From NCBI GenBank assembly GCA_036704125.1, contig DATNQI010000019.1, positions 971 through 64,970 on the forward strand: DNA of 64,000 nt. Direction: 5' to 3'. A program made the translations under genes and the position numbers. Shown here piece after piece: positions 9,232 to 25,776 of the stretch. The notes beneath the pieces were generated by a model. The model was given only the letters and a program-made list of their open reading frames with translations, was not told the origin of the DNA and searched no databases. Origin of the DNA: Pantanalinema sp. (GTDB lineage: Bacteria > Cyanobacteriota > Sericytochromatia > S15B-MN24 > UBA4093). Numbering within the stretch: position 1 is the stretch's first letter; each line of letters starts with the position of its first letter.

Positions 9232-9233
9232 GC

Positions 9234-10736: not shown

Positions 10737-11055
10737 GCACACACACCTCTCTAGCTGATGACGGAGCCGATTGCCGCGCCGGGGCGAACTCGATCCGGTC
10801 GGTCTGCGTCGGTTCTTGCTTCGTGTGGCGTTGCACATACGCCGTGGCAGGAAGGGGGCGATGGGGCCGGGGGACGGGGCCACTGCCAGGCAACCGCGTA
10901 TCATCCTAGCCAGAGTCCCCCCATAATACTTGGTTGGTTTCATCAAGCTTGGTTGTTCGGATCGAAGCTCCCAGAGAGCTTGGGGCGAACTGAACAAGCG
11001 AGCGTCATTCCTCCGCCGCTATGATCGGCCGGCCCATCGCGGCGAGGAGGATCCC

Positions 11056-12369
11056 ATGTTCATTCACATGATCGGCCTGAGCCATCGGACGGCGCCGGTC
11101 GCGGTGCGCGAGCGCGTCGCCGTGCCGGCGCACGGCCTGCAGGGGGCCCTCTCGGATCTCCTGGCGGATCCCGGCGTCCTCGAGGGGGTGATCCTCTCGA
11201 CCTGCAACCGGACGGAGGTCTACGCGGTCACGGCGGATCCATCGCTCGGCATCGAGGCCCTGCGCCGCTTCGCGGCGCGCGGCGGTGCCGACGCGGGGGG
11301 CTTCGAGGCGCGCGCCCAGGGCGAGGCCGTCCTACACCTCATGCGGGTCGCCGCGGGGCTCGAGTCCCAGCTGCTGGGCGAGCACCAGATCCTCGCCCAG
11401 ATCAAGGAGGCTCTCGCGGCCGCGCAGCACCAGCGCGCCGCCGGCGCCATCCTGGATGCGCTCTTTCGCTTCGCGCTCAGCGCGGGCAAGCGCGCACGAT
11501 CCCAGACCGAGATCGCGCGCGGGGCCGTCTCGGTCTCGGGGGCCGCCATCCACCTGGCGCGCGAGCATTTCGGCTCGCTGCGGGGCCGCGCCATCCTCAT
11601 CCTCGGCAGCGGCAAGATGGGCGAGCTCGCAGCCCGCCACCTCGCGGGCTCGGGGCTCGATCGGATCTACGTCGCCAGCCGCACGCAGGGGGCGGCCCGG
11701 CGCCTCGCCGAGGCGACGGGCGGCGAGGTGGTCTCCTTCTTCGCCCTGGACGAGGTCCTCGCCCGGGTGGACGTCCTGGTGTGCTGCACCGGGGCGCCCC
11801 ATCACGTGCTCTCGGCCTCGGACCTCGCGGGCCTTCACGCGCGCCGGGGCGGTCGCGAGCTGGTGCTCCTGGACCTCTCCATGCCGCGGAACCTGGATCC
11901 CGCCATCGCGGATCTGCCCGGCATGCGCCTGTGGGGCCTGGACGACCTCGAGGCGATCGCCCGCGAGCGCCGGCAGGAGCGCGCGGGGGTGGTGAGCGAG
12001 GTGGAGGCCATCCTGGAGGAGGAGCGCGCGGCCTACCTGGCCTGGCTGCGTTACTTCCAGATGAGCCCCGCCATCGCCTCCTTGCGGGACAAGGCCCACC
12101 AGGTCCGCGCCGGCGAGCTGGAGCGCTTCCTGGACAAGTACGCCGAGGCCTTCTCGGGCGATCAGCGCCGCCTGATCGAGGAGCTGAGCCAGGCCATCGT
12201 CAACAAGCTCCTGCACGGCCCCCTCTCGCGCCTGCGGGGCATGAGCGCGCAGGAGCAGCGGCAGCACGTCGGGACCTTGCAGGACCTGTTCGACCTTCCG
12301 GTCGAGGACTTCGCCGTGCACTACCGGCGGCGGCTCGTCGCGCGCCATGACGCCCTTCCCTCGCCCTAA
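11056..12369 (+). CDS. hemA: glutamyl-tRNA reductase
   Basis: HemA N-terminus (MIGLSHRTAPVAVRE…STCNRTEVY), an NADP-binding GxGxxG (LILGSGKMGE) and a C-terminal dimerisation helix. GAGGAGGA precedes ATG 11056. Confidence 0.9.
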   Translation: MFIHMIGLSHRTAPVAVRERVAVPAHGLQGALSDLLADPGVLEGVILSTCNRTEVYAVTADPSLGIEALRRFAARGGADAGGFEARAQGEAVLHLMRVAAGLESQLLGEHQILAQIKEALAAAQHQRAAGAILDALFRFALSAGKRARSQTEIARGAVSVSGAAIHLAREHFGSLRGRAILILGSGKMGELAARHLAGSGLDRIYVASRTQGAARRLAEATGGEVVSFFALDEVLARVDVLVCCTGAPHHVLSASDLAGLHARRGGRELVLLDLSMPRNLDPAIADLPGMRLWGLDDLEAIARERRQERAGVVSEVEAILEEERAAYLAWLRYFQMSPAIASLRDKAHQVRAGELERFLDKYAEAFSGDQRRLIEELSQAIVNKLLHGPLSRLRGMSAQEQRQHVGTLQDLFDLPVEDFAVHYRRRLVARHDALPSP

Positions 12370-12559
12370 TTTCGGCATGATCACTTGATTCGAGGCGGCG
12401 ATCTCTTTCTCCGTGATCATGATCGCCGCATTTGCGGCGATCGGGTGAAAAAACTTGCGCCCAGTGCATTTAGACGCGGGATCTCTGGGTAGAATAGCAG
12501 TAGAAAGCTTTTCGACGTTCGATCGCTCCTAAGATCGACATAACATGAGGACCACGAAC

Positions 12560-13306
12560 ATGACCTATCTCGAAGCCGCGCAGTTGATTCTGGCAGAGGC
12601 CCGCAAGCCCCTTACCGAGGCCGAGATCGTGTCGCGGGCGAAGCGGAAGGGCCTGATCGCCCCGCGCACCAGGGACCCGGAGCGCTCGATCGGGGTGGTC
12701 CTCAAGCGCGCCTCGCAGAACCCCGGGTCCAGCTTCGAGGCGACCGCGCCGCACACCTGGCAGCTCAAGCCCTCCAAGATCCTGGAGCACCCGATGAGCA
12801 TGCGCGAGGCGGCCCTCAAGATCCTGACGCTCGCGGGCAAGCCCCTCCACTACCAGGAGATCACCAAGCGCGCGATCCGCGCGGGCCTCATCCGCCCCGA
12901 GGGCCGGACCCCCGCCTACACCCTGCGCGCCCGGGTCGGCGACGACATGCAGCGCAACGCCGACTCGCCCTTCGAGCGCGTCTCGGACGGCACCTACGGC
13001 CTGCGCGTCTGGCCCAAGGACATGCTCAAGGCCAAGAAGACCGCCCGCAAGGTCAAGGCCAAGGCGATCGCCAAGCCCGCCGCGGTCAAGGCCGCGAAGG
13101 CCGCCAAGCCCGCTAAGCCCGCCGTCCTCAAGCCGGTGAAGGCCGCCAAGGCCACCGTCACCAAGCTCGAGGCCAAGGAGCCCCGCAAGCCCCGCGCCAA
13201 GCGCGTGGTCGAGACCGTCGCCCCCGTGGTGCCGATGAAGCCCCGCGTGAGGGTCGCCGACTCCGAGTCGCTCGCGCGCCTGCAGCGTAACAAGGCGGCG
13301 CACTGA
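12560..13306 (+). CDS. DNA-binding protein with two tandem HARE-HTH (RpoE-delta/Mrr-N-like winged-helix) domains and a histone-H1-like Lys/Ala-rich tail
   Basis: Two repeats of the pattern 'eAAlkIL..agkPL…EI..ra.r.GLI.p…tp..tl' are followed by AKAAKAAKPAKPAVLKPVKAAKA. Start is either ATG 12560 (GAGGA upstream) or ATG 12545. Confidence 0.6.
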   Translation: MTYLEAAQLILAEARKPLTEAEIVSRAKRKGLIAPRTRDPERSIGVVLKRASQNPGSSFEATAPHTWQLKPSKILEHPMSMREAALKILTLAGKPLHYQEITKRAIRAGLIRPEGRTPAYTLRARVGDDMQRNADSPFERVSDGTYGLRVWPKDMLKAKKTARKVKAKAIAKPAAVKAAKAAKPAKPAVLKPVKAAKATVTKLEAKEPRKPRAKRVVETVAPVVPMKPRVRVADSESLARLQRNKAAH

Positions 13307-13386
13307 GCCGGAGGCGTCCGTAACGACGGGCGAACGAAGCGTTCACGGGACGGTCATCCCGATTGGGACGATCGTCCCGACTTTGA

Positions 13387-13426
13387 GGAGACAAGCGGTT
13401 TCGAGCCGCTTGTCTCGTTTTTTTTG
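13387..13426 (+). terminator. rho-independent terminator (11-bp stem + T9)
   Basis: gagacaagcgg-tttcga-gccgcttgtctc followed by gttttttttgg. Confidence 0.85.
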
Positions 13427-13485
13427 GCGGGGCGCGGGGCAAGACTCCTCGGAGCAGACTCACTGACGCCTTGCAGGTTGATGAA

Positions 13486-14391
13486 ATGACCGACTCCCCG
13501 ATCCTGATCTACGCCTCCGCGGCGCCGCGCGACTGGGTCGCGCGGGTGTTCGAGGCGGCGGGGTATCGGGTCCTGGCGGCCTCGAACGGCCTGACCGCCC
13601 TCGATCAGGCGACCCGGACCACCCCCGCCATGATCGTGGCCGATGCGCGCTTGCCCGGTATCGACGGGGTGGAGGTGTGCCGGATCCTGAAGGGCATGTC
13701 GAGCATGCCCTTCACGCCGATCGTGCTGATCGAGCCCTCGTGCGCGGAGGTGGGCGAGCATGGCCGCTATTCCGAGGCCGACGACGTGTGGATCGCGCCG
13801 AGCACCCCTCAGGAGGTCGCGGCCCGCCTCAAGCTGCTTCAGCTGCGCCTGGATCGCCTCGCCGCCCTGCGCGGCGATCGCGATCGCCTCTACGAGCTGG
13901 CCTACCACGACCACCTGACGGGCCTGCCCAACCGCCGCTTCCTGGACGGGGCCCTGGCCGACGCGCTGGTCGATGCGCGCGCCCATGATCGGCCCATGGC
14001 GATCCTCCTGTTCGACGTGGATCGGTTCAAGAGCATCAACGATCGCTGGGGCCACCCGGTGGGCGATCGGGTGCTGCAGGAGATGGCGGAGGTCCTGCGC
14101 CGCAGCTCGCGCCGCCGGGACGTGATAGGGCGCTTCGGGGGCGAGGAGTTCCTTTACCTCTTGCCGGGCCACCCCCTGGACGAGGCGGTCCTGCAGGCCG
14201 AGCGGGTGCGCTCCGAGCTCGCCGCGCACCCCTTCTCGGCCCCCGACGAGGACGTGTGCCTCACGGTGAGCGTGGGGGCCACCGAGGTTCGGGGCGACGA
14301 CACGCCCCACTCCGTCCTCGTGCGGGCGGATCGCCTGCTCTACGAGGCCAAGCGGGGCGGCCGCAACCGGATCGTCTCTTTGAGAAGCTAG
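13486..14391 (+). CDS. response-regulator receiver fused to GGDEF diguanylate cyclase (PleD/WspR-like)
   Basis: REC domain (…MIVADARLPGIDG…) and a GGDEF domain with an intact GGEEF motif (RFGGEEFLYLL). An alternative in-frame ATG at 13471 is possible. Confidence 0.8.
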   Translation: MTDSPILIYASAAPRDWVARVFEAAGYRVLAASNGLTALDQATRTTPAMIVADARLPGIDGVEVCRILKGMSSMPFTPIVLIEPSCAEVGEHGRYSEADDVWIAPSTPQEVAARLKLLQLRLDRLAALRGDRDRLYELAYHDHLTGLPNRRFLDGALADALVDARAHDRPMAILLFDVDRFKSINDRWGHPVGDRVLQEMAEVLRRSSRRRDVIGRFGGEEFLYLLPGHPLDEAVLQAERVRSELAAHPFSAPDEDVCLTVSVGATEVRGDDTPHSVLVRADRLLYEAKRGGRNRIVSLRS

Positions 14392-16664
14392 CCCTGCAGG
14401 CCGGGCTGCCAGAGCCCGACCCTGGAGCCCTGGACCATGGCGCCGTACTTGGCGAGGAGCCCCGGCAAATCGGAGGTCGGGTCGCCGCCCCAGACCGCGG
14501 CGATGACGTCGTGGTCCGGCCGCGCCCAGCTCCGGTACAGCTCGAAGGCGTCGCGGGGCCGGTCGGAGGCCTCGAGGGCGCGCATGAGCCCCTGCACCAT
14601 CACCCCCTCGGCGATCTTCGCGATCTCCTTGCTCGGCGTCTGGCGGCTCGTGCCGAGGCGCTTGGGGGTCGTCTCGGCGCGGATCGCCTCGCGCTCGGCC
14701 TCGGTGATCCCGTAGAGGTCGAAGACCCGGGCGTCGATCGCCTCGAGGGCCTCGAGGGCGCGCTTGCGCCGAAGCTCCATGGCCGAAAGCCGCTCCTTGG
14801 CGGCCGCCTCCAGGGCCTCGGGGGTCTCCCAGAGCGTCTCGGCGATCGTCGTGCTGAGGTCCCAGCGCGAGGTCTGCGAGAGCCAGTCGAGGACCAGGGC
14901 TGCGTCGCCCGCGATGGCGCGCTGCTCTCGCTCGGTCGCGATCAAGAGGGGCAAGGATCCGAGCGTCGGCGTGTCCAGGTGAAGGGTGAGCTGCGCCTTG
15001 TTGGCGATGACCAGCTGGAAGTAGGCCTCCAAGAGGCGCGAGTTGAGCAGCGCGAGCAGGTAGTGAGGGTTCCAGTCCGACTGGGGCTCGAGCACGTTGA
15101 CGGTGTCGAGCGGCAGGCTGCCCGAGGGCAGGAGGGTCGCGACCACGGCGCTCGCGATGTTCTGGTAGACGATCCGAGGTGAGGAGAGCACGCTCGAGAG
15201 GAAGCGATCGCGCAGGGCGTAGCGGGGGCTGAGGCGCAGGAGGCCCTCGTCGCCGCCGTAGCGCCGGATGTCGCGGCCCCTGACCACCGGGGTCCCCTCG
15301 CTCCACAGGGCGATCGCGCTCTCCCTGGCCGAGATGCCCGCCCCGCGCCGGATCCAGGCCAGGTGCTGCAAGGGGACGCCCGAGACCTCGACCTTGGTGA
15401 TCCAGCCGCCGCTGGTGCGGTTGGCGTAGATCGGCATGGTCGGGCGGTTGCGGAAGAAGCCGTGGCTCTGGGTGCCCAGCTCGCGGAACGAGCCGTCCCG
15501 GAAGGAGTCGAGGCGCACCTCGCCCTGGTCGTCCGGCGCCCAGGGCAAAGCGGCGTTCGAGAACCTGGCCTGGCGGTGCTCGGCGACGAAGGCGATCGTC
15601 TCGAGGTTGACGCCGGGGAAGGCCGCGCCGAGATCCAGGAGGGCCGTCAGCTGCATGTCCTCGACCAGGAGCCTGCGGCACTCGTAGTAGGCGCCGGTGC
15701 GGGTGACGCCGTGGGGGACGACGAGCCCCAGGCGGCCCTTGGCGCGCAGCAGGCGCGCGGATCGCTCGATGAACAGGGCCGTGGTGTCCTGTCGACCGCT
15801 GCCCAGGCGGTAGTGGCGCTGGAAGAAGTGCTTGTCCTGGCTCGAGATCTCGGCCCCGTAGGGCGGGTTGCCCACGATCACGTCGAAGCCGGGCTCGAGG
15901 GTCGCGTCGTGCTGCTGGAGGGTGTTGCGGCCGAGCAGGTTGGCTTTGAGGGGCACCTTGAGCTCGGGCACCAGCTTGAGCTGGACGAAGGCCAGCCGGA
16001 TCTGGGCGAGCTTGAGGGCCCAGGGGTTGAGGTCCACGCCGAACAGGTGGCGCCCCATGACGCGCTTGAGGCGCAGGTAGCGGCCCTCGGCGCCGGTCTG
16101 CGAGGTCCAGACCCGCTCGAAGAGGGCCTCGAGCGAAAGCGACAGGAAGTTGCCGGCGCCGCAGGAAGGATCGAGCAGGCGGAAGTCCTTGGAGAGGGGC
16201 AGGTGCCTGGGCGGCAGGGTCGCCTCGAGCAGGTAGGTCACGATGGGCGCCGGGGTGTAGAAGGCGCCGTGCTTCTTGCGCTGGACGCTCGAGAGGTGGG
16301 TCTCGAACAGGCCGCCCAGCAGTTCGCCGTCCTCGTAGCCCCATTGCTGGGCCGAGAAGAGGTCGTGCAGGGTCTCGGTCAGCTCCGGCACCGAGGGGGC
16401 GCCGAGCTTGAGGGGCAGGGGGGCCGCGTCCGCGAACAGCGGGGTCTGGTCGCCGCCCAGGCCGCTCAGGGTGTCGAAGAGGGCCTTCTCGAGGGCTTCG
16501 CGATCGCCCGGGTGCTGCAGATGGCAGAACAGGGCGTTCGCCAGCACGAAGCAGGCGGCGGGCGGCTCGTGGACCGACAGGGCGTCGGCCAACAGGGCCA
16601 CGCCGTGGGTCAGGAGGCCCTCCTTGGAGAGCTCGGAGCGGGTGCGGGGGCTCGTGGTCTGCAT
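14388..16664 (-). CDS. solitary gamma-class N6-adenine DNA methyltransferase (Eco57I/TaqI-like N6_Mtase with C-terminal TRD)
   Basis: Motif X/I (GAFYTP…DPSCGAGNFL) and motif IV (NPPYG) in gamma order, with a long C-terminal target-recognition region and no PD-(D/E)XK or HsdR-like nuclease N-terminus. ATG at 16662-16664; the track ORF begins with TTG at 16700. Confidence 0.8.
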   Translation of the reverse strand: MQTTSPRTRSELSKEGLLTHGVALLADALSVHEPPAACFVLANALFCHLQHPGDREALEKALFDTLSGLGGDQTPLFADAAPLPLKLGAPSVPELTETLHDLFSAQQWGYEDGELLGGLFETHLSSVQRKKHGAFYTPAPIVTYLLEATLPPRHLPLSKDFRLLDPSCGAGNFLSLSLEALFERVWTSQTGAEGRYLRLKRVMGRHLFGVDLNPWALKLAQIRLAFVQLKLVPELKVPLKANLLGRNTLQQHDATLEPGFDVIVGNPPYGAEISSQDKHFFQRHYRLGSGRQDTTALFIERSARLLRAKGRLGLVVPHGVTRTGAYYECRRLLVEDMQLTALLDLGAAFPGVNLETIAFVAEHRQARFSNAALPWAPDDQGEVRLDSFRDGSFRELGTQSHGFFRNRPTMPIYANRTSGGWITKVEVSGVPLQHLAWIRRGAGISARESAIALWSEGTPVVRGRDIRRYGGDEGLLRLSPRYALRDRFLSSVLSSPRIVYQNIASAVVATLLPSGSLPLDTVNVLEPQSDWNPHYLLALLNSRLLEAYFQLVIANKAQLTLHLDTPTLGSLPLLIATEREQRAIAGDAALVLDWLSQTSRWDLSTTIAETLWETPEALEAAAKERLSAMELRRKRALEALEAIDARVFDLYGITEAEREAIRAETTPKRLGTSRQTPSKEIAKIAEGVMVQGLMRALEASDRPRDAFELYRSWARPDHDVIAAVWGGDPTSDLPGLLAKYGAMVQGSRVGLWQPGLQG

Positions 16665-16793
16665 GCTCCCATTATCCGGCGCCGCCCGCACGGGTGGCAA
16701 GGGGCGCTTTTCGGCGGCGGGCGCGCTTAACGGGCCTTAACAGAGCGGAGCGAGGGTGCTACCATGCCCTCGCGCGAAGGAGGCGTCCATCAC

Positions 16794-17330
16794 ATGGAGA
16801 AGCGGGGATTCGAGATCGAGGCGAAGTTTCGCCTGAGGCCCGGGCAGCGCGAGGCGATCGCCCAGGCCCTTTCCGGCTGCTCGCACGAGCGCGCCGTGCA
16901 GGAGGACCGCTACTTCGACGCGGGCCCGGGCCGGGTGCTGCGCCTCAGGCAGGAGAACGGCGCCTGGCTCATCACCCGCAAGGAGGCCCCCACCGTCTCG
17001 GCCGACGGCACCAAGACCCGCACCGAGATCGAGACTCCGATCCCGGTCGACCTGGTCGAGCCGCTCGCCGAGGCCTTCGCCTGGCTGGGGCACCGGCCCC
17101 TGATCGTGGTGAGGAAGGTCCGTGACGCCTACGAGATCGACGGGGCGACGGTCTGCCTGGATCGAATCGAGGGCCTCGACGACGACTTCGCCGAACTGGA
17201 GGTGCTCGCCCAGGAGGCCACGGCCAAGGGCGCTCTCGACGCCCTGCGCGCGCGCTTCGGCCTCGAAGAGGACCAGATCCTGCTCCACAGCTACGCCCGG
17301 CTCCTGGCGGAGGCGCGCGGACAGGCTTAG
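16794..17330 (+). CDS. CYTH-domain protein (CyaB/ThTPase-like triphosphate tunnel metalloenzyme)
   Basis: An N-terminal EIEAKFRL motif and tunnel-like acidic/basic residue pattern. The RBS GAAGGAGG lies 10 nt before ATG 16794. Confidence 0.7.
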   Translation: MEKRGFEIEAKFRLRPGQREAIAQALSGCSHERAVQEDRYFDAGPGRVLRLRQENGAWLITRKEAPTVSADGTKTRTEIETPIPVDLVEPLAEAFAWLGHRPLIVVRKVRDAYEIDGATVCLDRIEGLDDDFAELEVLAQEATAKGALDALRARFGLEEDQILLHSYARLLAEARGQA

Positions 17331-17331
17331 A

Positions 17332-17406
17332 GTGTCTAACAAAAATATCCTTCGAGCCGCCCCCGGCGGCCATCGGTCGTAACATGCCTGGTTTTGTTAG
17401 GCGCTC
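17332..17406 (+). repeat. REP/MITE-like palindromic intergenic element, copy A
   Basis: ~75 bp with terminal inverted repeats CTAAC(A/G)AAA…TTT(T/C)GTTAG and an internal GCCGCCCCCGGCGGC hairpin. It is ~80% identical to the reverse complement of 34187..34264 and starts 2 bp after the CYTH stop. Confidence 0.7.
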
Positions 17407-17443
17407 TTAGTGAATACCCGGTAGCCAACCCACCTCCTTCCGA

Positions 17444-18137
17444 GTGACTGGGAGTAGGGACTCCTCCTGTTGGGTATTATTGCCTGATACTTTTGCCCCT
17501 TCGGGCCGATCGTTCGTAGCTGAGCCTTTGTCGTCGCCAACAGAGCGCGCGCCTGCCGAGATCATGGCCCACGGCAACGGGTTGGCGCTTGGTTGCTACG
17601 TGGGATCCGAGAAGGTCACGGCGGATGACGAACCTTTTGGTCGGAAGATGCGGAGACCGATCGTCTTGCCGGTAGAACAATATTTCGAGAGCGCCCGCCT
17701 CAAGGCGCTCATGCCAGAGAATCAGAGGAGGCTGGGGTATGGCTCGTGAAGACTATTTTGCTGCTGAGGAACCATTTGTGCAGGCGTCGCCTGCACAAAT
17801 GAAAATGCCCGCTGATTACGGCAAGGTGCTCGATGGCCTCAAGGCCAAGGAGCGCGACCTGGAGCGTGGGCTCCTGGCTCACCTCAAGGACTTCTACCTC
17901 TCGCTCGTGGACGACAAGCTTCGCCATCCCGCCGATCAGCCGAGCATCGGTCTGATCCTTTGCAAAGAGCGAAACAAGCTGATCGTCGAGTATGCCTTCC
18001 GCGATATCCGCAAGCCGATGGGGATTGTGGCATACGAGCTGTTCGAGCAGTTGCCGGAGCAACTTCAGAACGCACTGCCAAGCGTGGAAGATCTCGAGCG
18101 AGGCATCGGGGAGGACAGAGGGGAGATCGTCGAATGA
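17444..18137 (+). pseudogene. degraded YhcG/DUF1016 PD-(D/E)XK nuclease gene (frameshifted N-terminus, nuclease core deleted)
   Basis: The 3' ORF 17739..18137 encodes …KERDLERGLLAHLKDFY|LSLVDDKLRHPADQPSIGLILCKERNKLIVEYAFRDIRKPMGIVAYELFEQLP…LPSVEDLE, matching the YhcG C-terminus (…HPDDQPTIGLLLCK.KNK.V.EYAL…KPIG.A.YEL…LPSIEELE). The ~55-aa nuclease core that normally sits between them is absent, the upstream part is in another frame, and local GC is lower. Confidence 0.65.
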
Positions 18138-20749
18138 CCCGGGTCTTATCGCGCGCGCTGCCTGAAGCTGCCTTGCTCGCGGCCTCGGCGCACCGCGTCG
18201 TCACCCCCAACGAGCGGGCGGCAAGGGCCCTCGGGGTCGAGCCCTGTTCGCTGCAGGGGCTGGCGACGAACATTCTCTCGGAGGCGGGTTTTGCGATCGC
18301 CTCCCCGCTACTTGCGGTGCGCCTCTTCAGGCAGGCCGCCGCGAGCCTGGGCGAGGCCCCCGATCTGGCCGTGACCATGGCTGCGACGGTGCGCGAGCTG
18401 TTCCGCACGGGGGCCGACCTGGAAGCCCTCGTTTCCTCTGCACCGCCCCGCGCCGCCAGGGTGGCGCGCCTTGCCTTCGCCTACCGCTCGGCCTTGCGCG
18501 CGAAGCGCCTGGTGGACGATGCCGAGTGCCTGCGCGTGGCGGCAGGGCGGGTGGAGGGCACACAAGTCCTGCTCGTGGCGGGTTACCCGCGCCTTGGCGA
18601 AGACGAGGTCGCCTTCCTCGACGCGATCGCAGGGCCCGCCTCGCGCGTCCACCTCCCGAACACCGGCGAGGCCCTCTTCTTCGAGAATGCCCTGGTGGCC
18701 GATTCCCTGGAGGCGCGCGGCTGGATGGTGGAGCGCCCGGAGGGCGCAAGGCCGTTCACCGGGCGCTACCTGGCGCCGGCCTTCGCACCGGTCCCGCCGC
18801 GGGCCTATCGCTACGCCAACCTCGAGGCCGAGGTGCGCGGGGCGCTCGCGCGCCTCAAGGTCCTCTTGAACAAGGGGATGCGCCCGGATCAGGTGGCTCT
18901 GGTCGCACGTGACGATGTGGCCTACGGCCCGATGGTCATGGCGATCGCCTGGGAGTACGGCCTGGACATCGGCGCCTTCTACGCGGTGCCCCTCGCCGCG
19001 ACCCACGTTGGCGCCTGGCTGCGCCTTGCGATGGAGGTCGTGAATGGCGCCTTCCCCTATGAGACGACGGCGCGGCTGCTTGGCCATCGGCTCTCGGAGC
19101 GCCTGTCGCCCGAGGTCTGGGGCCAGGTCAGGAAGGGCCACCCGGTTGGCCTGGACGCATGGGTTGGCGTTTGCCCCGAACTGGGCCTGCTCGCATGGCC
19201 CGAGCGCGCAAGCAGGGCCGGATGGCGGCACCTGTTGCAGCAGATGCTCGATGGCTTCGACGTCTCGGAGCGCGCCGGCCGTTCGCCGCGCGAGGTGCTG
19301 GCGCTAGGCAAGCTGCACGAAGGGCTCGACACCCTTGCGCAGCCCGGGGACGAGACGCTGAGCCGGCATGGCTTCGAGGCCGAGCTGGTAGATTTGCTCA
19401 GCCTTCTCTCGGTGCCCGCCCATCCCGACGCGAAGGGTGTCGCCCTGCACACGCCGCTCTCGCTCTACGGGGCACGCTATCGCCACCTCATGGTGCTCGG
19501 GATGGCGGAGGGGCACTTCCCCGTGCGCGTCGAGAACGACCCGGTGCTTGACTTCCATGAGCGCAGGGCCCTCGAAGCGCTGGGGTGTCGTCTCGAAGGC
19601 GCAGCCTCGGCCGCGCGCCGCGAGGCTCTCTCGTTCTGGGCGTTGTTGCAAGTGGCCACCGAGGGCCTGGAGCTGTCGTATGCCGAGCTGGCGAACGGGG
19701 AGGCGCTGCTCCCTAGCCCCTACCTCGCGGATCTCGCCGCGGCCCTCGCGGATCCGCCCTCCGTTCCCGCGTGCAGCCCCGAGGAGTCGCGTCCCGCCCG
19801 CCTGCGAGGCGCGTACTGCGACGATCCGGTCTTGCCCTTCGCGCTCCACTCCCATCGCGTCGAGTGGGGCCGCGAGGCTTCGCCTGAATACGACCATTTC
19901 GACGGGGTTCCCGGCGTGCCGGTGGACCCGGCGACACGCCGCTTCAGCGCGTCCCAGCTCGTGACCATCGGCCAGTGTCCCTTCAAGTGGTTTGCCCAGC
20001 GCCTCTTGCGCCTGGCGGATCCCGAGGAGGTCGAAGGCGAGCTGAGCCCGGGGCTGCGGGGCACCCTCTTTCACCGGGCGCTGGAGCTTGCGGTCGAGGG
20101 GGCCTTGCCGCTCTTGGCCCCCCGTGCCCACGTCCTCTCGCGCCTCGACGAGGCCTTCGCTCGAGCCGAGGTCGAGTTGCAGGTCCAGGCCGTGAGCGCA
20201 TGGACCGCGCAGCGTGACTTTCACCTGAAAACCCTGCGCGCCGCGGTGGAGGCCCCGGGCTTCGTGGCCGACGGTGCGGCCATCGTCCAGGTCGAGGGCA
20301 GGTTCACGGGCCGCGCCTTCGGCCTGAACTTCATCGGGTACGTGGACCGGATCGATCGCACCGACGACGGGCTGGTGTTCGTCGACTACAAGACCTCCTC
20401 CTCGCCGCCCAAGGGGGCCAAGGACGACGAGGGCAAGCCCAAGGTGGATGTGCAACTGCCGCTCTACATGGAGGTGGCGGCCCCCGCCCTCTTCCCGGGC
20501 GAGCCGGTGGCAGGGGCGCACTACTACTCTTTGACCAAGGGCGAGGTCCTCAAGAAGGCCGTCCCGAGCCCCGGCGACCTGGAGCGGCTGACCGGCAAGG
20601 TGAAGGCCCATCTCGAAGCGGGAAGCTACCCGGTGGCGCCCGACGTAGACGAGGCCTCGTGCCTGTATTGTGACCTGGCGCTGGTCTGTCGCTCGGGGCC
20701 GCGCCTGGCTCGCAAGCAGATGGGTGGAGAGGAAAACACGAACGCATGA
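18134..20749 (+). CDS. AddB-like RecB-family nuclease (PD-(D/E)XK with C-terminal Cys cluster), helicase-nuclease complex subunit B-like
   Basis: C-terminal nuclease motifs (…GYVDRIDRTDDGLVFVDYKTS…) and a Cys cluster (CLYCDLALVC) sit on an AddB-like inactive N-terminal region. ATG 18134 overlaps the upstream stop and is translationally coupled to the downstream helicase (ATGA at 20746). Confidence 0.7.
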   Translation: MTRVLSRALPEAALLAASAHRVVTPNERAARALGVEPCSLQGLATNILSEAGFAIASPLLAVRLFRQAAASLGEAPDLAVTMAATVRELFRTGADLEALVSSAPPRAARVARLAFAYRSALRAKRLVDDAECLRVAAGRVEGTQVLLVAGYPRLGEDEVAFLDAIAGPASRVHLPNTGEALFFENALVADSLEARGWMVERPEGARPFTGRYLAPAFAPVPPRAYRYANLEAEVRGALARLKVLLNKGMRPDQVALVARDDVAYGPMVMAIAWEYGLDIGAFYAVPLAATHVGAWLRLAMEVVNGAFPYETTARLLGHRLSERLSPEVWGQVRKGHPVGLDAWVGVCPELGLLAWPERASRAGWRHLLQQMLDGFDVSERAGRSPREVLALGKLHEGLDTLAQPGDETLSRHGFEAELVDLLSLLSVPAHPDAKGVALHTPLSLYGARYRHLMVLGMAEGHFPVRVENDPVLDFHERRALEALGCRLEGAASAARREALSFWALLQVATEGLELSYAELANGEALLPSPYLADLAAALADPPSVPACSPEESRPARLRGAYCDDPVLPFALHSHRVEWGREASPEYDHFDGVPGVPVDPATRRFSASQLVTIGQCPFKWFAQRLLRLADPEEVEGELSPGLRGTLFHRALELAVEGALPLLAPRAHVLSRLDEAFARAEVELQVQAVSAWTAQRDFHLKTLRAAVEAPGFVADGAAIVQVEGRFTGRAFGLNFIGYVDRIDRTDDGLVFVDYKTSSSPPKGAKDDEGKPKVDVQLPLYMEVAAPALFPGEPVAGAHYYSLTKGEVLKKAVPSPGDLERLTGKVKAHLEAGSYPVAPDVDEASCLYCDLALVCRSGPRLARKQMGGEENTNA

Positions 20750-23307
20750 GTCTCACGCCGGAACAGGAACGCGCCGCCCATGCCCCCGCCAGCGTGTCGG
20801 TGACGGCGGGGGCGGGCACGGGCAAGACCCACATGCTCACCGCGCGCTACCGTCATCACCTGGAAGCGCACGGCCTCTCGCCGCTCGAGATCGTGGCCGT
20901 CACCTTCACCAAGAAGGCCGCCGCCGAGATGCGATCGCGCATCCGGGAAATGGTCGCAACCTCGATGCAGGCCACCCCCGACCTGGTGGCGGAGCTCGAG
21001 GCCGCTCCCATCAGCACCCTGCACGTGCTCGCAGCGCGCATCTGCCGCGAGCACCCCGAGGCCGCCGAGGTCCCGCCCGACTTCGCTGTGCTCGATGAGC
21101 TGGAGGGCAAGCTGTGGCGAGAGGAGCGGATCGCCGAGCTGTTCACGGCGCTGCCCGAGACGATTCTCGAGGCGGTTCCCTTCTCGCTCCTGGACCCCGC
21201 CATCCGGGCGTTCCTCGACGATCCCTGGACCGCGCAGCGGGCACTGAGGCAGGATCCCGGCGCCTGGGCCGGCATGGCGCGCGAGGCGCGAAAGGAGGCC
21301 GCCGAGGCCCTGTTCGCGGATGAGACCTGGACGCAGACCGTCGGTTCGGTGCGCTCCCTTGTCGGTCCCGAGGGGGATGCGATCGAGAACACCAGGCGCT
21401 CGGCCCTTTCAGGCCTGGAATCGCTCGAGTCGGCGCACCAGGCGGGCACGAGCTTGCGTCAGGCGCTCGAGGCCCTTCAGGCCTTGCCGATGCGGGGCGG
21501 ATCCAAGAAGAACTGGGGCGAAGAGAAATTCGAGGCCGTCAAGGTGGCCCTCAAGGCGCTGCGCGAACTCGTCGGGGATGCTCTGAAGGCCGGGCTCCTC
21601 ACCCTCGAGCTGGGCGAGGCCGATCGCGTCTTGGCCGATCTCTTGCCTCTCCTGAGGGAGGCTTACGCCCTGGCCACGGCGCACATGGCCCGAGCCAAGC
21701 GAGAGGCCAAGGTGCTGGATTTCAGCGACCTGGAGCTCGGGGCCCTGCGCGCCCTCGGCCAGCTCGAGGTCGTGGCCTACTACGCCGCGCGCTGGAAGGC
21801 GTACTTGGTGGACGAATTCCAGGACACCAACCCGGTCCAGGCCGAGCTGCTCGAGCGCCTCACGGGAGGGGCGATCCTCACGGTGGTCGGCGACGAGAAG
21901 CAGGCCATCTACGGCTTCAGGCGGGCGGACGTGGCGGTCTTCCGGCGCTTTCGCGCTCGCATCGTGGCCGAAGGCGGCCTGCATGTCTCGTTGACTAAGA
22001 GCTTCCGCACTCACGGGGAACTGCTGGCCCCCCTCAATCGGCTTTTCGAGCCCGTCCTGGGCGAGCTGCACCAGGCGCTCGTCGCGACGCGGCAGGAGCA
22101 TCCGGCAGGGACGCCCGTGGTGGTCGCTTTTTCCGTCGCAACGGACAAGGAGTTGCACAAGGGTGTGGACAAGTCGGCGCGTCAGCGATCCGAGGCGAAG
22201 CGCCTCGCGCGGCAGCTCAGGGAGCTGCTGGACGCGGGTGCCCTCGTCCTCGACAAGCCCAAGTGCGCGTTGCGCCCCATCCGGCCCGGGGACGTGGCCA
22301 TCCTCGCGCGCACCTGGGAGCCGCTCGAGGTCTACGGCGAGGCGCTCGCCGCGGAGGGCATCCCGTTCGTGCATGCCGGGGGCGGAAGCCTGATGGATAC
22401 CCGCGAGGCGAGGGACGGCTGGGCCTTGCTGCGCTTCTTGGCGAGTCCCGAGGACGACCTGGCCCTGGTCGCGGTGCTGCGCAGTCCCTTCTTCGCCCTG
22501 AGCGATCGCGCCCTGCTCGGCTTCGCCGCAGCCCTGCCCGCGGCCGGCGGCTACTGGCAGGCCCTGAAGGCGCTCGAGAACCCGTCCGCCGAGTGGGGCA
22601 GGGCGAGGGATATTCTCGGCCCCCTGCTCAGGACCGCACGCGCCGAGTCCGCGAGCCGGGCCCTGCAGGAGGTGGATCGGTACTGCGGCTACACGGCGGT
22701 GCTCGCGAACCTGCCCAATCCGGTGCGGCGCCTGGCGGACTGGCGAGCGTTCCTCGACTTCGTGCGGGGCCTGGAGGGCGACGGGACCGATCTCTTCCCC
22801 CTGGTGCGGCGCCTGCGCCGCTTGCTGGATGCCGAGGTGAACGTGCCACGCCCGTCCCTGGAGGCCCGGGATGCGGTCTCGCTCATGACCGTCCACGCCT
22901 CCAAGGGCCTGGAGTGGCCGCTGGTGGTGGTGCCTGACCTGGCGCGCTCGGCGCCTGCGGGGCGCGATCGCGTCCTGCTGGACGCCGAGCGGGGCGTGGC
23001 CCTGGGCCTGGGCAAGGAGCTGGAAGGAAGCGGCGATCCTGCCCTCTTCACCATCCTGAAGCAAGAGCAGCTCGCGCGCGAGGCGGCCGAGGCGAGGCGG
23101 GTGATGTACGTGGCGATCACCCGGGCGCGAGACTACCTCATGCTCACCTCCACCGATCCCAGGGGCGGCAGCATGGACTTCCTCTCCCCCGGATTCGCCG
23201 CAGCGGGGCTCGTCGTCGAGGCGGCACCCTTCGAGGCGGAGGATGCCCTGCCCCCGGAGCCTCGACTTCCGCCTCCGCCCGAGCCGCCTGAGAGCCACCT
23301 CTTCTGA
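20746..23307 (+). CDS. UvrD/PcrA-family SF1 helicase (AddA-like but lacking a C-terminal nuclease domain)
   Basis: Walker A (GAGTGKTHML) with motifs I–VI of UvrD-like helicases (…VDEFQDTNP…, …SFRT…, …VHASKGLEWP…VMYVAITRAR…). The protein ends after helicase domain 2A with a Pro-rich tail. Confidence 0.8.
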   Translation: MSLTPEQERAAHAPASVSVTAGAGTGKTHMLTARYRHHLEAHGLSPLEIVAVTFTKKAAAEMRSRIREMVATSMQATPDLVAELEAAPISTLHVLAARICREHPEAAEVPPDFAVLDELEGKLWREERIAELFTALPETILEAVPFSLLDPAIRAFLDDPWTAQRALRQDPGAWAGMAREARKEAAEALFADETWTQTVGSVRSLVGPEGDAIENTRRSALSGLESLESAHQAGTSLRQALEALQALPMRGGSKKNWGEEKFEAVKVALKALRELVGDALKAGLLTLELGEADRVLADLLPLLREAYALATAHMARAKREAKVLDFSDLELGALRALGQLEVVAYYAARWKAYLVDEFQDTNPVQAELLERLTGGAILTVVGDEKQAIYGFRRADVAVFRRFRARIVAEGGLHVSLTKSFRTHGELLAPLNRLFEPVLGELHQALVATRQEHPAGTPVVVAFSVATDKELHKGVDKSARQRSEAKRLARQLRELLDAGALVLDKPKCALRPIRPGDVAILARTWEPLEVYGEALAAEGIPFVHAGGGSLMDTREARDGWALLRFLASPEDDLALVAVLRSPFFALSDRALLGFAAALPAAGGYWQALKALENPSAEWGRARDILGPLLRTARAESASRALQEVDRYCGYTAVLANLPNPVRRLADWRAFLDFVRGLEGDGTDLFPLVRRLRRLLDAEVNVPRPSLEARDAVSLMTVHASKGLEWPLVVVPDLARSAPAGRDRVLLDAERGVALGLGKELEGSGDPALFTILKQEQLAREAAEARRVMYVAITRARDYLMLTSTDPRGGSMDFLSPGFAAAGLVVEAAPFEAEDALPPEPRLPPPPEPPESHLF

Positions 23308-23312
23308 GAACG

Positions 23313-23347
23313 ACCAGGGGCCCGGCGAGTCTCGCCGGGCCCCTGGT
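23313..23347. terminator. bidirectional terminator hairpin between helicase gene and convergent clostripain-like gene
   Basis: Perfect inverted repeat accaggggcccggcgag-tc-tcgccgggcccctggt. Confidence 0.6.
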
Positions 23348-23358
23348 GTGTTCGGGAT

Positions 23359-24636
23359 TTACTTCTTGAGGTAGCTCTGCAGGAACTTGGCCCACTGGGT
23401 GGTGCCGAAGATCTGGTGCGAACCGTCGCTGTAGGCGGCGTTGTAGGTCTCGAGGCCGAAGTAGATCTTGAGGCCGGTGAAGGCGCCGCCGGGCAGGCGG
23501 TTGGTCATGCTCAGGACGACCGAGCGCGTCAGCTGGGTGTTCACTTCCTTGGCGAGGGCCTTGGTCGTGGCGGGCAGGCTCGACTCCTGGATCAGGTTGC
23601 AGAAGAGGCCCAGGTCGATGGCGTCCTCTTCGCCGCTGCCGGTGGCCGAGAGGTTCGCGGCCTTGTTGACGACGCCGGCGAGGGCGGCCTTGAAGGCGGG
23701 GGTCGAAAGGCCGGCCTGCAGGTCGGTGGCCAGCGCGTTGACGCCGGGGACGACGCGATCCTTGAGCTTCTGGAGGTCGATCGACGAGAGGGTCGACTCC
23801 TGGTTGGCCTTCTTGTACCAGGCGCTGTAGGTCTCGACGATCTTGCTCGAGAACTCGCGGGGGTACATGCCGGGGGTCTTCGAGAGGGCCGAGGTCAGGG
23901 ACTGGTAGTCCCAGCCGTCGCCGGGCTCGACCTTCTCGGACGAGACCAGGAAGTCCGCCACGTCGCGCAGCTGATAGGCCGTCTCGGCGTGGCCCAGAAG
24001 GCAGGTGTCGAAGCCGATCACGTCGAACTTGGCCTTGCTCGACACCTTCTGGGTGGCGCGCCACAGGTCGACCAGGTTGAGGTTGTTGCCGCTCTGATCG
24101 TCCCAGCAGAAGGACTTGAGGTGGTTGGGCGAGGCGAAGGCGCCGCCGCCGTGGTTCCACATGACGAGCATCGAGCGCTTGGAGGGATAGTTCTTGGTGC
24201 CCCAGTTGATGAACTTCTCGAGGGTCGCCGACGAGCCGGTGTCGACTTCCTTGGAGGCCTTGGGGATGACCGCGCCGCCGTCGTCGATGACGGGCGAGAC
24301 GAGGGTGCTGTTCACGCCCTTGGGGTCGTTCTTGATCTCGACGATGCGCGAGTCGCCTTCGCGGTCCTGGTCGACGAGGGCCACGACCTTCACGCGCTCG
24401 GAGGTCAGGCCGGCTTCCATCTCGTTGAGGTCCTTGGCGGCGAAGGGCGAGAGGTTGTTGTCACCCGCGATGTAGACGAAGACCGTCCAGTCCGAGGCGC
24501 CCGCCTTGGAGCCCTTGGTGCCCTGGGCGTTCATGTCCCCGGCGCCGCCGCCGAACAGCCCCGCGGGCATCACGCCGCAACCGGTCACCATGAGCGAAGT
24601 GGCAAGGCTGAGAAGCAGGGCGGATTTCTTGAACAT
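23359..24636 (-). CDS. clostripain-family (C11) cysteine peptidase lipoprotein
   Basis: Lipobox signal (LMVTGC), the C11 hallmark motifs (VFVYIAGDNNL, MWNHGGG, IGFDTCL), and RBS GGAGGT before the ATG. Confidence 0.75.
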   Translation of the reverse strand: MFKKSALLLSLATSLMVTGCGVMPAGLFGGGAGDMNAQGTKGSKAGASDWTVFVYIAGDNNLSPFAAKDLNEMEAGLTSERVKVVALVDQDREGDSRIVEIKNDPKGVNSTLVSPVIDDGGAVIPKASKEVDTGSSATLEKFINWGTKNYPSKRSMLVMWNHGGGAFASPNHLKSFCWDDQSGNNLNLVDLWRATQKVSSKAKFDVIGFDTCLLGHAETAYQLRDVADFLVSSEKVEPGDGWDYQSLTSALSKTPGMYPREFSSKIVETYSAWYKKANQESTLSSIDLQKLKDRVVPGVNALATDLQAGLSTPAFKAALAGVVNKAANLSATGSGEEDAIDLGLFCNLIQESSLPATTKALAKEVNTQLTRSVVLSMTNRLPGGAFTGLKIYFGLETYNAAYSDGSHQIFGTTQWAKFLQSYLKK

Positions 24637-24696
24637 GGTGACCTCCGAAGTGGTTGGGTTGGTGCCTGTTTGAAGGTTATCGGTTGTGCGAGGGTG

Positions 24697-24719
24697 TAAC
24701 TGTCGTTAAAAAACAGTTA
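24697..24719. promoter_or_regulatory. perfect palindrome TAACTGT-N9-ACAGTTA (operator-like) upstream of clostripain-like gene
   Basis: 7-bp inverted arms around an AT-rich centre (cgttaaaaa), 60-83 bp upstream of start 24636. Confidence 0.4.
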
Positions 24720-24740
24720 AAAGTGCTGCGAGGCGGATCC

Positions 24741-24774
24741 AAAAAAACCGCCCCCCGGAAGGCTCCGGGGGGCG
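24741..24774 (-). terminator. rho-independent terminator for the PA-repeat gene (minus strand)
   Basis: ccgccccccgg-aaggct-ccggggggcgg flanked by A7 on the plus strand, which is U7 downstream on the minus strand. Confidence 0.75.
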
Positions 24775-24790: not shown

Positions 24791-25699
24791 TTACAGGTTC
24801 TTGAGCATGTGCATGTAGGCGTCGGCGGCTTCCTTGAGCAGTTGCGCCTGCTGGAAGAGCGCGGAGTTCTCGCCGGCCTGGCCCTTGGTGGCGGTGAGCT
24901 GCTCGGTCAGCGTGATGATCTCGGTGACCGGCGCCCGGGTGGCCGCAGCGTGCGCGAGCCCTTCGTAGAGGGTCGCGAGCTGCGACTGGATCTGCTCGAT
25001 CCCGGTCGTCAGCTGGTTGACCGCCGAGACGAGGTGGGTCAGGGTCTCGTTGCGATCCGCGCTGGTCGCGAGGCGGACGGCGCCGCTCGGGGCCACCGGG
25101 GCCATCGCCGGGACGAACGGGTTTGCCTCGACCGCGATCGCAGCCGGCACCGACGGGGCCTGCGGGATCGAGACGATCGGGGCGGGAGCCGGCGCATAGA
25201 CCGGCTCGACGCGAGCGGGTTCGGGGGCCGGGGCTGCGAACACGGGCTCGACGGGCGGGGCTGCGAACACGGGCTCGACGGGCGGGGCCGCGAACACGGG
25301 CTCGACGGGCGGGGCCGCGAACACGGGCTCGACGGGCGGTGCCGCGAACACGGGAGCCGCCGGCGGTGCCGCGAAGACCGGATCGGCCGCAGGAGCCTCG
25401 AAGGCCGGATCGCTGGTGAAGCTCGCGATCAGATCGTTGATCTCGGTGTCGACCGAGGGGCTCGCGAACGGATCGAGCGAAGCGGCATCGAAGGCGGGGG
25501 GCTGGGCGGCGGCCGGTGCGGCTGGAGCCTCGAAGGGGAGCCCCTGGGGCTCGAAGCTGGGCGCCTGCGGCTCGAAGCCGACCGGCATCGGGTCGTTGGC
25601 GGTCTGGTAGAGGGCGAGCAGGTCGTTCAGGGTCGCGTCGTCGCCGCTGCCGGCGGGATCCTGGCCCCCCCAGTAGTTGCCCGTCTGGCCGGCGGGCAT
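24791..25699 (-). CDS. Pro/Ala-rich repeat protein with conserved C-terminal coiled-coil-like domain; function unknown
   Basis: Five tandem PVFAAPPVE repeats and a C-terminal …LTHLVSAVNQLTTGIEQIQSQLATLYEGLAHA… region. ATG 25697-25699 is suggested; GTG at 25735 is an alternative. It lies immediately downstream of lepA on the same strand. Confidence 0.5.
   Translation of the reverse strand: MPAGQTGNYWGGQDPAGSGDDATLNDLLALYQTANDPMPVGFEPQAPSFEPQGLPFEAPAAPAAAQPPAFDAASLDPFASPSVDTEINDLIASFTSDPAFEAPAADPVFAAPPAAPVFAAPPVEPVFAAPPVEPVFAAPPVEPVFAAPPVEPVFAAPAPEPARVEPVYAPAPAPIVSIPQAPSVPAAIAVEANPFVPAMAPVAPSGAVRLATSADRNETLTHLVSAVNQLTTGIEQIQSQLATLYEGLAHAAATRAPVTEIITLTEQLTATKGQAGENSALFQQAQLLKEAADAYMHMLKNL
25233..25380. 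repeat. in-frame 27-bp tandem repeat (about 5 copies) inside the PA-rich gene
   Basis: The unit ggctcgacgggcggggccgcgaacacg is repeated with minor variation and encodes PVFAAPPVE. Confidence 0.85.
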
Positions 25700-25776
25700 C
25701 CCTTCGGAGGGGTTGTTGAGAAACGGCAAGTCCACGTTCTGATTCCGCCTTTCGTGTTTTGATGACCCCGCGGGGG

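Follow-up and report, generated by a model that had tools for sequence, protein, structure and literature searches.

A candidate addB-addA operon with a nuclease-less AddA in a variable segment beside a conserved orphan methylase in a high-GC Cyanobacteriota assembly

A 64,000-nucleotide stretch of DNA filed under Pantanalinema sp. (GenBank assembly GCA_036704125.1, contig DATNQI010000019.1, positions 971 to 64,970 of the forward strand; hereafter the window) was analysed, with attention to two overlapping plus-strand genes. These encode an AddB-type subunit of 871 amino acids (aa; 18134-20749) and an AddA-type superfamily 1A (SF1A) helicase of 853 aa in which the nuclease domain is absent (20746-23307). 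To their left lie a gamma-class N6-adenine methyltransferase (MTase) gene, a CYTH-domain gene, a palindromic repeat, a stretch of low guanine-plus-cytosine (GC) content and the remnant of a YhcG/DUF1016 nuclease gene. To their right lies a clostripain-family peptidase gene. All the genes listed in an earlier interpretation made from the letters and their translations (the sequence-only reading) were recovered at the same positions, and its domain calls were borne out by Pfam, NCBIfam and PADLOC scans of the predicted proteins. The window has a GC content of 68.7% and therefore holds many long spurious open reading frames (ORFs), and the gene map was cleaned by a filter on third-position GC (GC3; background in the window 0.934 ± 0.03). 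Ninety loci of relatives were fetched for comparison and are given labels beginning with L.

The AddB-like protein carries a Pfam PDDEXK_1 domain at residues 603-853 (3.8e-36), and its family profile matches AddB of Bacillus subtilis (3U44_B, 1.3e-17). An AlphaFold2 model with a predicted local distance difference test score (pLDDT) of 84 was searched with Foldseek. The top match was AddB over the whole length (3U4Q_B, E = 2.4e-29, template modelling (TM) score 0.54), followed by AdnA (E = 1e-23) and then RecC. The nuclease residues D738, D751 and K753 with the Q774/Y778 motif, and the four Fe-S cysteines C615, C843, C846 and C852 (a 1+3 iron staple), were intact in 82 of 82 family members checked. 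The N-terminal region is modelled as an inactivated SF1 helicase-like fold of the kind found in AddB and RecC. In NCBI the exact protein is annotated as 'PD-(D/E)XK nuclease family protein' (Pantanalinema sp. metagenome-assembled genome, MAG).

The helicase matched Pfam UvrD-helicase (7e-54) and UvrD_C, the latter ending near residue 802. Its best PDB sequence match was AddA (3U44_A, 8e-53) and its best NCBIfam model was addA_Gpos, at 250 bits against a cut-off of 708. AddB scored 52.5 bits against addB_alphas (cut-off 486.5), and no NCBIfam AddA or AddB equivalog model came near its cut-off for the pair. Helicase motifs I, II, III, V and VI were readable in AddA (GAGTGKT, DEFQDT, VGDEKQAIYGFR, YVAITRAR). 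PADLOC returned no match for AddB and only generic UvrD/GajB matches for the helicase. Assignment to Gabija was considered and rejected: the GajB match is generic (1e-34) and weaker than the AddA models, and the partner is a PD-(D/E)xK protein of AddB type, no GajA being present. The ATGA overlaps read earlier between the yhcG remnant and addB (18134-18137) and between addB and addA (20746-20749) are both present, and adjacency of addB and addA with coupling was seen in most related loci holding both genes. On sequence and fold matches the pair is best read as addB-addA in the ordinary arrangement with a truncated AddA, and not as the unusual split AddAB that the sequence-only reading had offered as one option.

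B. subtilis AddAB (PDB 3U44, 3U4Q and 4CEH) has the same gene order, addB-addA, and for each subunit it was the top match in sequence and in fold. The shared features are a helicase-like N-terminus and a RecB/Cas4-type nuclease with a four-cysteine Fe-S staple in AddB, and an SF1A UvrD-like motor in AddA. The window AddB, by comparison, is about 300 aa shorter (871 versus 1166) at approximately 15% identity, and no GxGKT-type Walker A was read in its N-terminus; the window AddA is without the whole C-terminal nuclease domain (853 versus 1232 aa). Mycobacterial AdnAB (PDB 6PPJ and others) is likewise a two-subunit helicase-nuclease, and AdnA was the second-best fold for AddB. In AdnAB, however, each of the two subunits has helicase motifs as well as a nuclease domain, whereas in the window no helicase motifs were read in AddB and AddA has no nuclease. 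Nuclease-dead AdnAB is reported to support recombination still (PMC5314763). Full-length representatives of this compact subfamily in Microcoleus sp. FACHB-1515, Leptolyngbya sp. SIO1E4, L001 and L002 resemble the window in having an AddB of approximately 870 aa (42-45% identical) in a coupled addB-addA operon. They differ in AddA, which is 1060-1075 aa long and retains a PDDEXK_1 nuclease domain.

No PDDEXK match was found in the window AddA, and the protein ends about 50 residues past UvrD_C. This agrees with the earlier remark that the helicase is without the nuclease domain that AddA and AdnB carry. Its proline-rich tail corresponds to the linker that stands ahead of the nuclease domain in full-length relatives, where the AddA partners are 1050-1100 aa long, those of cyanobacterial relatives being 1060-1076 aa, with a C-terminal PDDEXK_1. 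The gene downstream of addA begins 52 nucleotides (nt) past the stop, on the opposite strand. A hidden Markov model (HMM) of the nuclease domain was built from nuclease-bearing relatives. It found the domain in most adjacent helicases and gave no match in the window, L003, L005, L019, L022, L073, L084, L007 and L008.

Helicase relatives were sought among 1.84 billion 50%-identity cluster representatives, and 118 full-length relatives were examined. The nuclease domain was present in 67; 28 were 890 aa or shorter; the other 23 had C-terminal extensions that the small HMM leaves unclassified. The AddA nuclease domain is missing in roughly a quarter of related clusters, and among the short helicases listed the C-terminus is typically proline-rich and linker-like. 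In a neighbour-joining tree of AddB, nuclease-less partners stood at six places with nuclease-bearing ones around them. This is taken to mean that the AddA nuclease was lost several times independently, the number of losses being approximate because the tree is without support values.

The same truncation was found in L003, which comes from an independent sample and is 84% identical in nucleotides. AddA there has the identical length of 853 aa, and AddB is 877 aa long (871 aa in the window). Ratios of nonsynonymous to synonymous substitution rates (dN/dS) against L003 were 0.18 for addA and 0.24 for addB, and both genes are under purifying selection. Synonymous divergence (dS) was 0.64 for addB, 0.49 for addA and 0.13 for the adjacent clostripain gene, and nucleotide identity to L003, which is 74% where addB begins at its 5' end, rises along the segment to reach 93-96% within the clostripain gene. 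Such a gradient points to recombination or allele replacement inside the addBA module.

Other arrangements were seen among the related loci. In L007 (Amazonocrinis, 10623-13796) and L008 (Nostoc NIES-4103 plasmid1, 10623-13878), approximately 3.2 kb with three ORFs separates addB from an 853-aa addA that is likewise nuclease-less. L014 has a helicase of 733 aa followed downstream by an ORF of its own, 348 aa long, for the nuclease domain. A large Pleurocapsales/Xenococcaceae clade has an AddB-like gene with intact nuclease and Fe-S residues and no UvrD-type helicase within 8 kb (L018, L020, L021, L033, L036, L040-L043, L048, L050, L051, L053, L056-L058, L060-L062, L066, L067, L076, L079, L080 and others). 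In nine of those loci a universal-stress-protein-like gene lies downstream of the lone AddB-like gene.

Genomes were scanned for AddB with a 7-sequence alignment, a 19-sequence alignment being too diverse for the scan. In 185,579 species representatives it detected at least 170 relatives; the figure is a minimum, since the scan was pattern-seeded. Most are cyanobacterial, with one copy carried by a Nostoc plasmid; others are in Acidobacteriota, Deinococcales (Deinococcota), Sericytochromatia and Omnitrophota. Complete genomes with the pair include those of Calothrix NIES-2100, Leptolyngbya PCC 6406 and Waterburya (OZ244627). RecBCD and AddAB are lacking in most cyanobacteria (PMC12094033; PMC5101192). 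The flanks of the module comprised 390 ORFs in 332 clusters, which amounts to no conserved neighbourhood. The commonest neighbour family, universal stress protein (Usp), made up 8 of 147 nearest neighbours and was confined to one clade. Defence and mobile neighbours, counted as raw tallies, included BrxC/DUF6079 in three loci, four occurrences of mad3 and three of AriA. BrxA/BrxE, a group II intron reverse transcriptase and a serine recombinase were found in L004, ParAB with an integrase in L001, HsdR in L003, and toxin-antitoxin genes elsewhere. Many neighbours were ordinary (Usp, GatB, Ada). In the window, GC3 of addB (0.864) and addA (0.882) was 1.7-2.3 standard deviations under the background. 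The pair is thus best classed, from its sequence and distribution, as an accessory and horizontally mobile AddAB subfamily and not as a universal core system. The sequence-only reading had named a universal, syntenic AddAB as the finding that would tell against a role in defence. As the pair proved neither universal nor syntenic, its defence reading is not refuted on that count, and a defence role is not thereby demonstrated.

The edges of the segment that holds the pair were placed by synteny. Homology to L086 ends at 17320, ten bases ahead of the CYTH stop, and past this breakpoint L086 has a di-haem cytochrome c peroxidase gene beside CYTH. L003, with an AddB 77% identical, is colinear with 18182-24773 of the window, a stretch that takes in the addBA pair and the clostripain gene. 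Directly adjoining addB on its upstream side, L003 has the C-terminus of a type I HsdR (T1RH-like_C, E = 3e-124). The occurrence of restriction-type genes at this spot in relatives supports part of the sequence-only reading. In L087/88 the order is lepA, a 363-aa gene, a 498-aa gene and CYTH, and addBA and the clostripain gene are missing from this lepA-CYTH interval. The 363-aa gene is orthologous to the window gene at 24791-25912 (minus strand), which encodes a 373-aa Pro/Ala-rich protein and has its orthologue beside lepA in L087; lepA itself was mapped to 25777-27582 (minus strand) in the window. The clostripain-family (C11) peptidase gene (23359-24636, minus strand, convergent with addA; Pfam Peptidase_C11, 3.5e-55) is common to the window and L003, is not found in L087/88, and marks the right-hand edge of the segment. 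It is not homologous to the genes in the equivalent position of L086 or L087. From the comparison of L086, L003 and L087/88, 17331 to about 24700 is taken as a variable interval between conserved flanks. A metagenome scan with the CYTH alignment for further versions of this spot returned one already-known locus and one 2-kb contig.

An 85-bp palindromic repeat (17326-17410) marks the exact point where the backbone gives way to the variable segment. Its outer arms are 19 nt long and enclose a GCCGCC...GGCGGC hairpin, and the core CCAGGCATGTTACGACC is shared with a second copy at 34183-34265. The two copies are in opposite orientations, each directly after a gene end. The fold predicted for 17326-17410 as RNA had an energy of -36.3 kcal/mol (z = -3.4). 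Rfam gave no family in the repeat, the region or the whole window, and a 17-mer of the core was found in 0 of the 90 fetched loci. The element could be a repeat of the repetitive extragenic palindromic (REP) or miniature inverted-repeat transposable element (MITE) type, or a bidirectional terminator. The repeat is followed by non-coding filler without a recognisable gene (17411-17738). GC content over 17331-17738 was 57.8%, versus 68.7% for the window; the REP-like element and the low-GC DNA noticed earlier are thus both there. A 101-aa ORF at 17444-17749 gave no Pfam match. In a DNA search of 17331-18133 against plasmids only the yhcG core matched. Presumably the filler is what is left of a foreign cassette that has been lost.

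The yhcG remnant is a 132-aa ORF (17739-18137, plus strand). It matched Pfam YhcG_C at positions 92-157 of 157 only, and PADLOC PDC-S02 at the C-terminal ends only. By tblastn it was aligned in a single frame to residues 185-220 and 273-348 of a 354-aa YhcG from a Meiothermus plasmid. An in-frame deletion of approximately 52 codons has removed residues 221-272, which hold the D...(D/E)xK core, and the N-terminal approximately 184 residues are lost. YhcG/DUF1016 nucleases comprise an N-terminal helical domain and a PD-(D/E)xK core with an E-D-ExK motif (PMC1189080). Unlike these intact enzymes, the remnant has neither an intact N-terminal helical domain nor the catalytic core, and the resemblance is confined to its C-terminal 76 residues (58% identical to the Meiothermus protein). 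Loss of the catalytic core had been recognised correctly in the sequence-only reading; the frameshift it reported was not borne out by the single-frame alignment. The family is the PADLOC candidate PDC-S02, often found in type I restriction-modification (R-M) operons. Type I R-M loci surrounded three of the four closest plasmid YhcG homologues examined, and such loci carry their own HsdM and HsdS. GC3 of the remnant was 0.70 (z = -7.8). By its sequence and composition the gene is a pseudogene, dead and foreign. The left part of the variable segment (repeat, debris and gutted yhcG) would then be the wreck of a foreign, probably type-I-R-M-associated cassette. The setting of the YhcG homologues in type I R-M loci, together with HsdR in L003, suggests that a cassette of type I R-M kind once occupied the spot.

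The MTase gene lies on the minus strand at 14388-16700 (770 aa from a TTG start) or, from a likelier ATG supported by the L086 orthologue and a promoter-like site, at 14388-16664 (758 aa). Pfam domains were Eco57I (1.8e-18), N6_Mtase (1.9e-17) and TaqI_C (1.3e-9), and PADLOC MTase_II was matched at 2e-35. In the translation, the S-adenosylmethionine motif LLDPSCGAGNFL precedes the catalytic NPPYG (motif IV), followed by the C-terminal TaqI_C target-recognition domain. Pfam found no nuclease domain, and only about 120 residues stand ahead of the MTase domain, in which no nuclease family was matched. The catalytic-domain family and TaqI_C are shared with Eco57I/TaqI gamma N6-adenine MTases, type IIG enzymes, PglX of bacteriophage exclusion (BREX) systems and MAD2 of methylation-associated defence systems (MADS). 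A type IIG enzyme was rejected because the fused N-terminal endonuclease domain is absent; distant homologues with that domain are 940-1270 aa long. BREX and MADS were rejected on scores of 74 bits (PglX, cut-off 500) and 64 bits (MAD2, cut-off 720), the cut-offs standing 10-20 times above the scores of the window MTase. No Brx or Mad partner gene was found in the window, the neighbours being a GGDEF regulator, a HARE-HTH protein and CYTH.

The divergent MTase/CYTH intergenic region (16665-16793) holds a promoter-like site on each strand, at 16700->16671 (minus) and 16737-16765 (plus), two being found where 0.2 were expected. The minus-strand site (TTGCCA, 18 nt, GATAAT) ends 7 nt ahead of the ATG at 16664, so that the MTase mRNA may lack a leader and the TTG at 16700 is probably not a real start. 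The CYTH protein (triphosphate tunnel metalloenzyme or CyaB-like) is encoded on the plus strand at 16764-17330 as an ORF, with a start at 16794 (M11) indicated by its orthologues. Its domain matched Pfam PF01928 (E = 1.3e-17) and the ExExK signature is present as EIEAK. It scored 54.7 bits against TIGR00318 cyaB (cut-off 57.95); cyclase and triphosphatase are indistinguishable by sequence. Beyond the MTase lie a response-regulator/GGDEF diguanylate cyclase gene (13471-14391, plus strand; Pfam GGDEF, E = 4e-44, and Response_reg), convergent with the MTase gene and overlapping its end by 4 nt, and a gene for a 253-aa protein with two HARE-HTH repeats (12545-13306, plus strand; Pfam PF05066, E = 1e-29). 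Both belong to the backbone, and thrS and hemA are upstream of the region.

Orthologues of the MTase form a tight group at 44-93% identity, found only in related high-GC MAGs, the next matches being at 29% or less. Their contexts were compared in five independent relatives (L086, L087/88, L089, L101 and L102). L086, with an MTase 93% identical, has CYTH, MTase, GGDEF, HARE-HTH and hemA in the order of the window, and blastn showed colinearity with window positions 7911-17320 at 84-90% identity. CYTH is followed by X, Y and then the MTase in L087/88 (MTase 56% identical), L089 (53%) and L102 (66%), X and Y being two further genes. GGDEF and HARE-HTH come next after the MTase in L087/88 and L102; thrS takes that place in L089. 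The contig of L101 (MTase 66% identical) starts inside the array, with Y, the MTase, and GGDEF and HARE-HTH further on. No recognisable endonuclease, YhcG included, lay beside the MTase in these five contexts, and the solitary state of the enzyme described earlier is thus borne out. dN/dS against L086 was 0.18 for the MTase and 0.26 for CYTH. GC3 was 0.967 for the MTase and 0.933 for CYTH. When the composition of 14.4-18.1 kb was compared with the window background, the yhcG remnant stood out as foreign and the MTase and CYTH genes were host-like.

Conserved order in relatives with MTases 53-93% identical, together with host-like GC3, places the MTase and CYTH genes in what the sequence comparison indicates is native chromosomal backbone. 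The genes taken together in the sequence-only reading as one defence island are accordingly better seen as this backbone and a separate variable segment. The CYTH protein is ordinary, and so is the MTase, a gamma-class enzyme that stands as an orphan. By comparison of its orthologues, the MTase is a lineage-conserved solitary enzyme, most likely methylating a fixed motif, and not the survivor of a recently decayed R-M pair. In L086, L087/88, L101 and L102 the HARE-HTH gene is never more than a few genes away from the MTase. HARE-HTH domains have been linked to the recognition of modified DNA, and a functional link between this protein and the methylase is possible.

In the relatives, X (623-667 aa) and Y (133-139 aa) lie between CYTH and the MTase, and the Y stop abuts the MTase start (L087:5623-8000, L089:5471-7999, L102:1186-3492, and L101:223-630 with Y at the contig start). 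Both are cleanly missing from the window and L086. In that sub-lineage the MTase has lost these co-oriented upstream genes and is still under purifying selection. Neither protein matched a Pfam family, and X gave no PDB sequence match. Only 19 homologues of X were found in 5.8 billion proteins. An AlphaFold2 model of X was poor (pLDDT 58), showing coiled coils and then long beta hairpins, and Foldseek returned only meaningless beta-barrel matches (TM about 0.1). X as an endonuclease was rejected, as no nuclease was recognisable by sequence or in this low-scoring fold. The X-Y-MTase operon of the relatives may be a new methylase-linked system.

AddAB and RecBCD are the textbook 'destroy until Chi, then repair' machines, in which Chi controls the 3'-strand nuclease. 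In B. subtilis AddAB a single SF1A motor in AddA unwinds the duplex, and the two nucleases divide the strands between them, that of AddA cutting the 3'-terminated one and that of AddB the 5'-terminated one; once Chi is bound, the 3' strand is kept from the AddA nuclease and a 3' tail results (PMC4824097; PMC3064778). By homology with these proteins, the two window proteins would form a heterodimer at double-stranded DNA ends. The AddA motor would translocate 3'->5' and unwind the duplex, and the Fe-S-stapled AddB nuclease would cut the 5'-terminated strand. Nothing in the complex should cut the 3'-terminated strand. With AddA lacking its nuclease domain, the 3' strand would be spared, and ends would be resected straight into 3' single-stranded tails for RecA, with no destructive mode, no Chi switch and no need of Chi. 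A nuclease-dead B. subtilis mutant, AddA(D1172A)-AddB, was reportedly described by Yeeles and Dillingham in 2007 (cited in PMC3064778). The likeness is that the AddB nuclease alone is active, so that only the 5'-terminated strand should be cut during unwinding. The mutant differs in being an engineered point mutant with the domain still folded, whereas the window pair is a natural variant in which the domain is gone and which has arisen several times.

The best explanation of the region, to which a probability of about 0.6 is given, is a native backbone beside a variable segment that contains a wrecked cassette and a single-nuclease addB-addA operon. Recombinational repair is the favoured role, because loss of the 3'-strand nuclease lowers destructive capacity. 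The further proposal that nuclease-less AddA with AddB is a natural Chi-independent, non-destructive resection machine, evolved repeatedly in a mobile AddAB subfamily, is offered tentatively, as less likely than not. Several points weigh against the best explanation. Complex formation, polarity and strand specificity are all carried over from B. subtilis AddAB, with which AddB shares approximately 15% identity. The loss count comes from a neighbour-joining tree without support values and is approximate, and the short helicases may include some that are gene fragments. Cleavage of the 3' strand could also be provided in trans, by a nuclease encoded elsewhere. The scope was the window, and the pair cannot be claimed as the only end-processing enzyme. 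Any functional tie of X and Y to the MTase is conjecture, and the activity of the MTase is predicted from its sequence.

The pair could instead lie in a defence hot spot and serve as a module directed specifically against phages or plasmids, acting on the linear or replicating DNA of invaders and not in chromosome repair. Its sporadic distribution across phyla, the copy on a Nostoc plasmid and the lack of a conserved neighbourhood (390 ORFs in 332 clusters) would suit such a module, as would the defence and mobile neighbours seen at some loci (Brx, mad3, AriA, HsdR, ParAB with integrase, toxin-antitoxin genes and the yhcG remnant), the higher dS of addB and addA (0.64 and 0.49, versus 0.13 for the clostripain gene) and their slightly low GC3. 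Yet most neighbours are ordinary and the defence tallies are raw, with no random-gene baseline; PADLOC did not match AddB and saw in the helicase only generic UvrD/GajB, with no GajA; and loss of the 3'-strand nuclease should lessen destructiveness. We regard the module as unlikely to be one of defence. That the pair is a vertically inherited core AddAB enzyme of double-strand break repair, with variable flanks being incidental, is distinctly unlikely. It is kept with the same downstream neighbour in the relative with a 77% identical AddB, is under purifying selection and has an overall GC of 70%, equal to the host; moreover, in a group where most members are without RecBCD/AddAB (PMC12094033, PMC5101192) it could be the sole end processor. 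A core enzyme should not, however, be missing from the syntenic lepA-CYTH interval of L087/88, be replaced by another gene beside CYTH in L086 (MTase 93% identical), number only 170 relatives in 185,579 species genomes across scattered phyla, or show GC3 1.7-2.3 standard deviations below background.

Early pseudogenisation, in which the truncated addA would belong to a decaying, non-functional operon, is prompted by the loss of a whole domain next to a yhcG gene that is certainly dead. It is very improbable given full-length ORFs, an AddA of 853 aa in L003 also, dN/dS of 0.18-0.24, helicase motifs and AddB catalytic and Fe-S residues that are all intact, and the same architecture in 28 separate 50%-identity clusters. 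Hardly credible is the proposal, implicit in the sequence-only reading, that the MTase and the now gutted YhcG were once the two halves of an R-M system, of which only the MTase survives. The two genes are approximately 1 kb apart and the MTase is without an endonuclease partner, but the CYTH gene and the synteny breakpoint stand between them, codon usage is native in the MTase and foreign in the remnant, no YhcG or other nuclease is near the MTase orthologues (L086, L087/88, L089, L101, L102), and the close YhcG homologues are in type I R-M loci with their own HsdM and HsdS.

If the resection proposal were true, the travel of the module among lineages otherwise without RecBCD/AddAB (most cyanobacteria, Deinococcota) might be explained, and the purpose of the AddA nuclease and of Chi control could be tested on a natural example. 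A widespread and selected nuclease-less form would make the destructive mode dispensable in some bacteria and would provide a minimal resection enzyme for study or use. As the subfamily occurs in groups said to lack RecBCD/AddAB, its annotation would change repair-gene inventories of cyanobacteria and their non-photosynthetic relatives. The comparison also has corrective value, in that the methylase is a conserved orphan and not the widow of a dead nuclease, and what was called an 'island' comes down to a single variable spot next to native genes.

The nearest named relatives of the MTase and AddB were Sericytochromatia and other high-GC MAGs, and the source organism is probably a high-GC member of the Cyanobacteriota. 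The label Pantanalinema sp. (Leptolyngbyaceae) may be unreliable; similar third-party annotation (TPA) MAGs are labelled Stenomitos sp. The genes seen in the window include none for photosynthesis. Elsewhere in it are ordinary chromosomal genes, including those for polysaccharide export, an M16 peptidase, a subtilase, a CHASE-PAS histidine kinase and a kinase-PP2C fusion. A MutS2-type protein with MutS_V, MSSS and Smr nuclease domains is encoded at 52850-55453, approximately 30 kb from addBA; proteins of this type are anti-recombination or repair factors.

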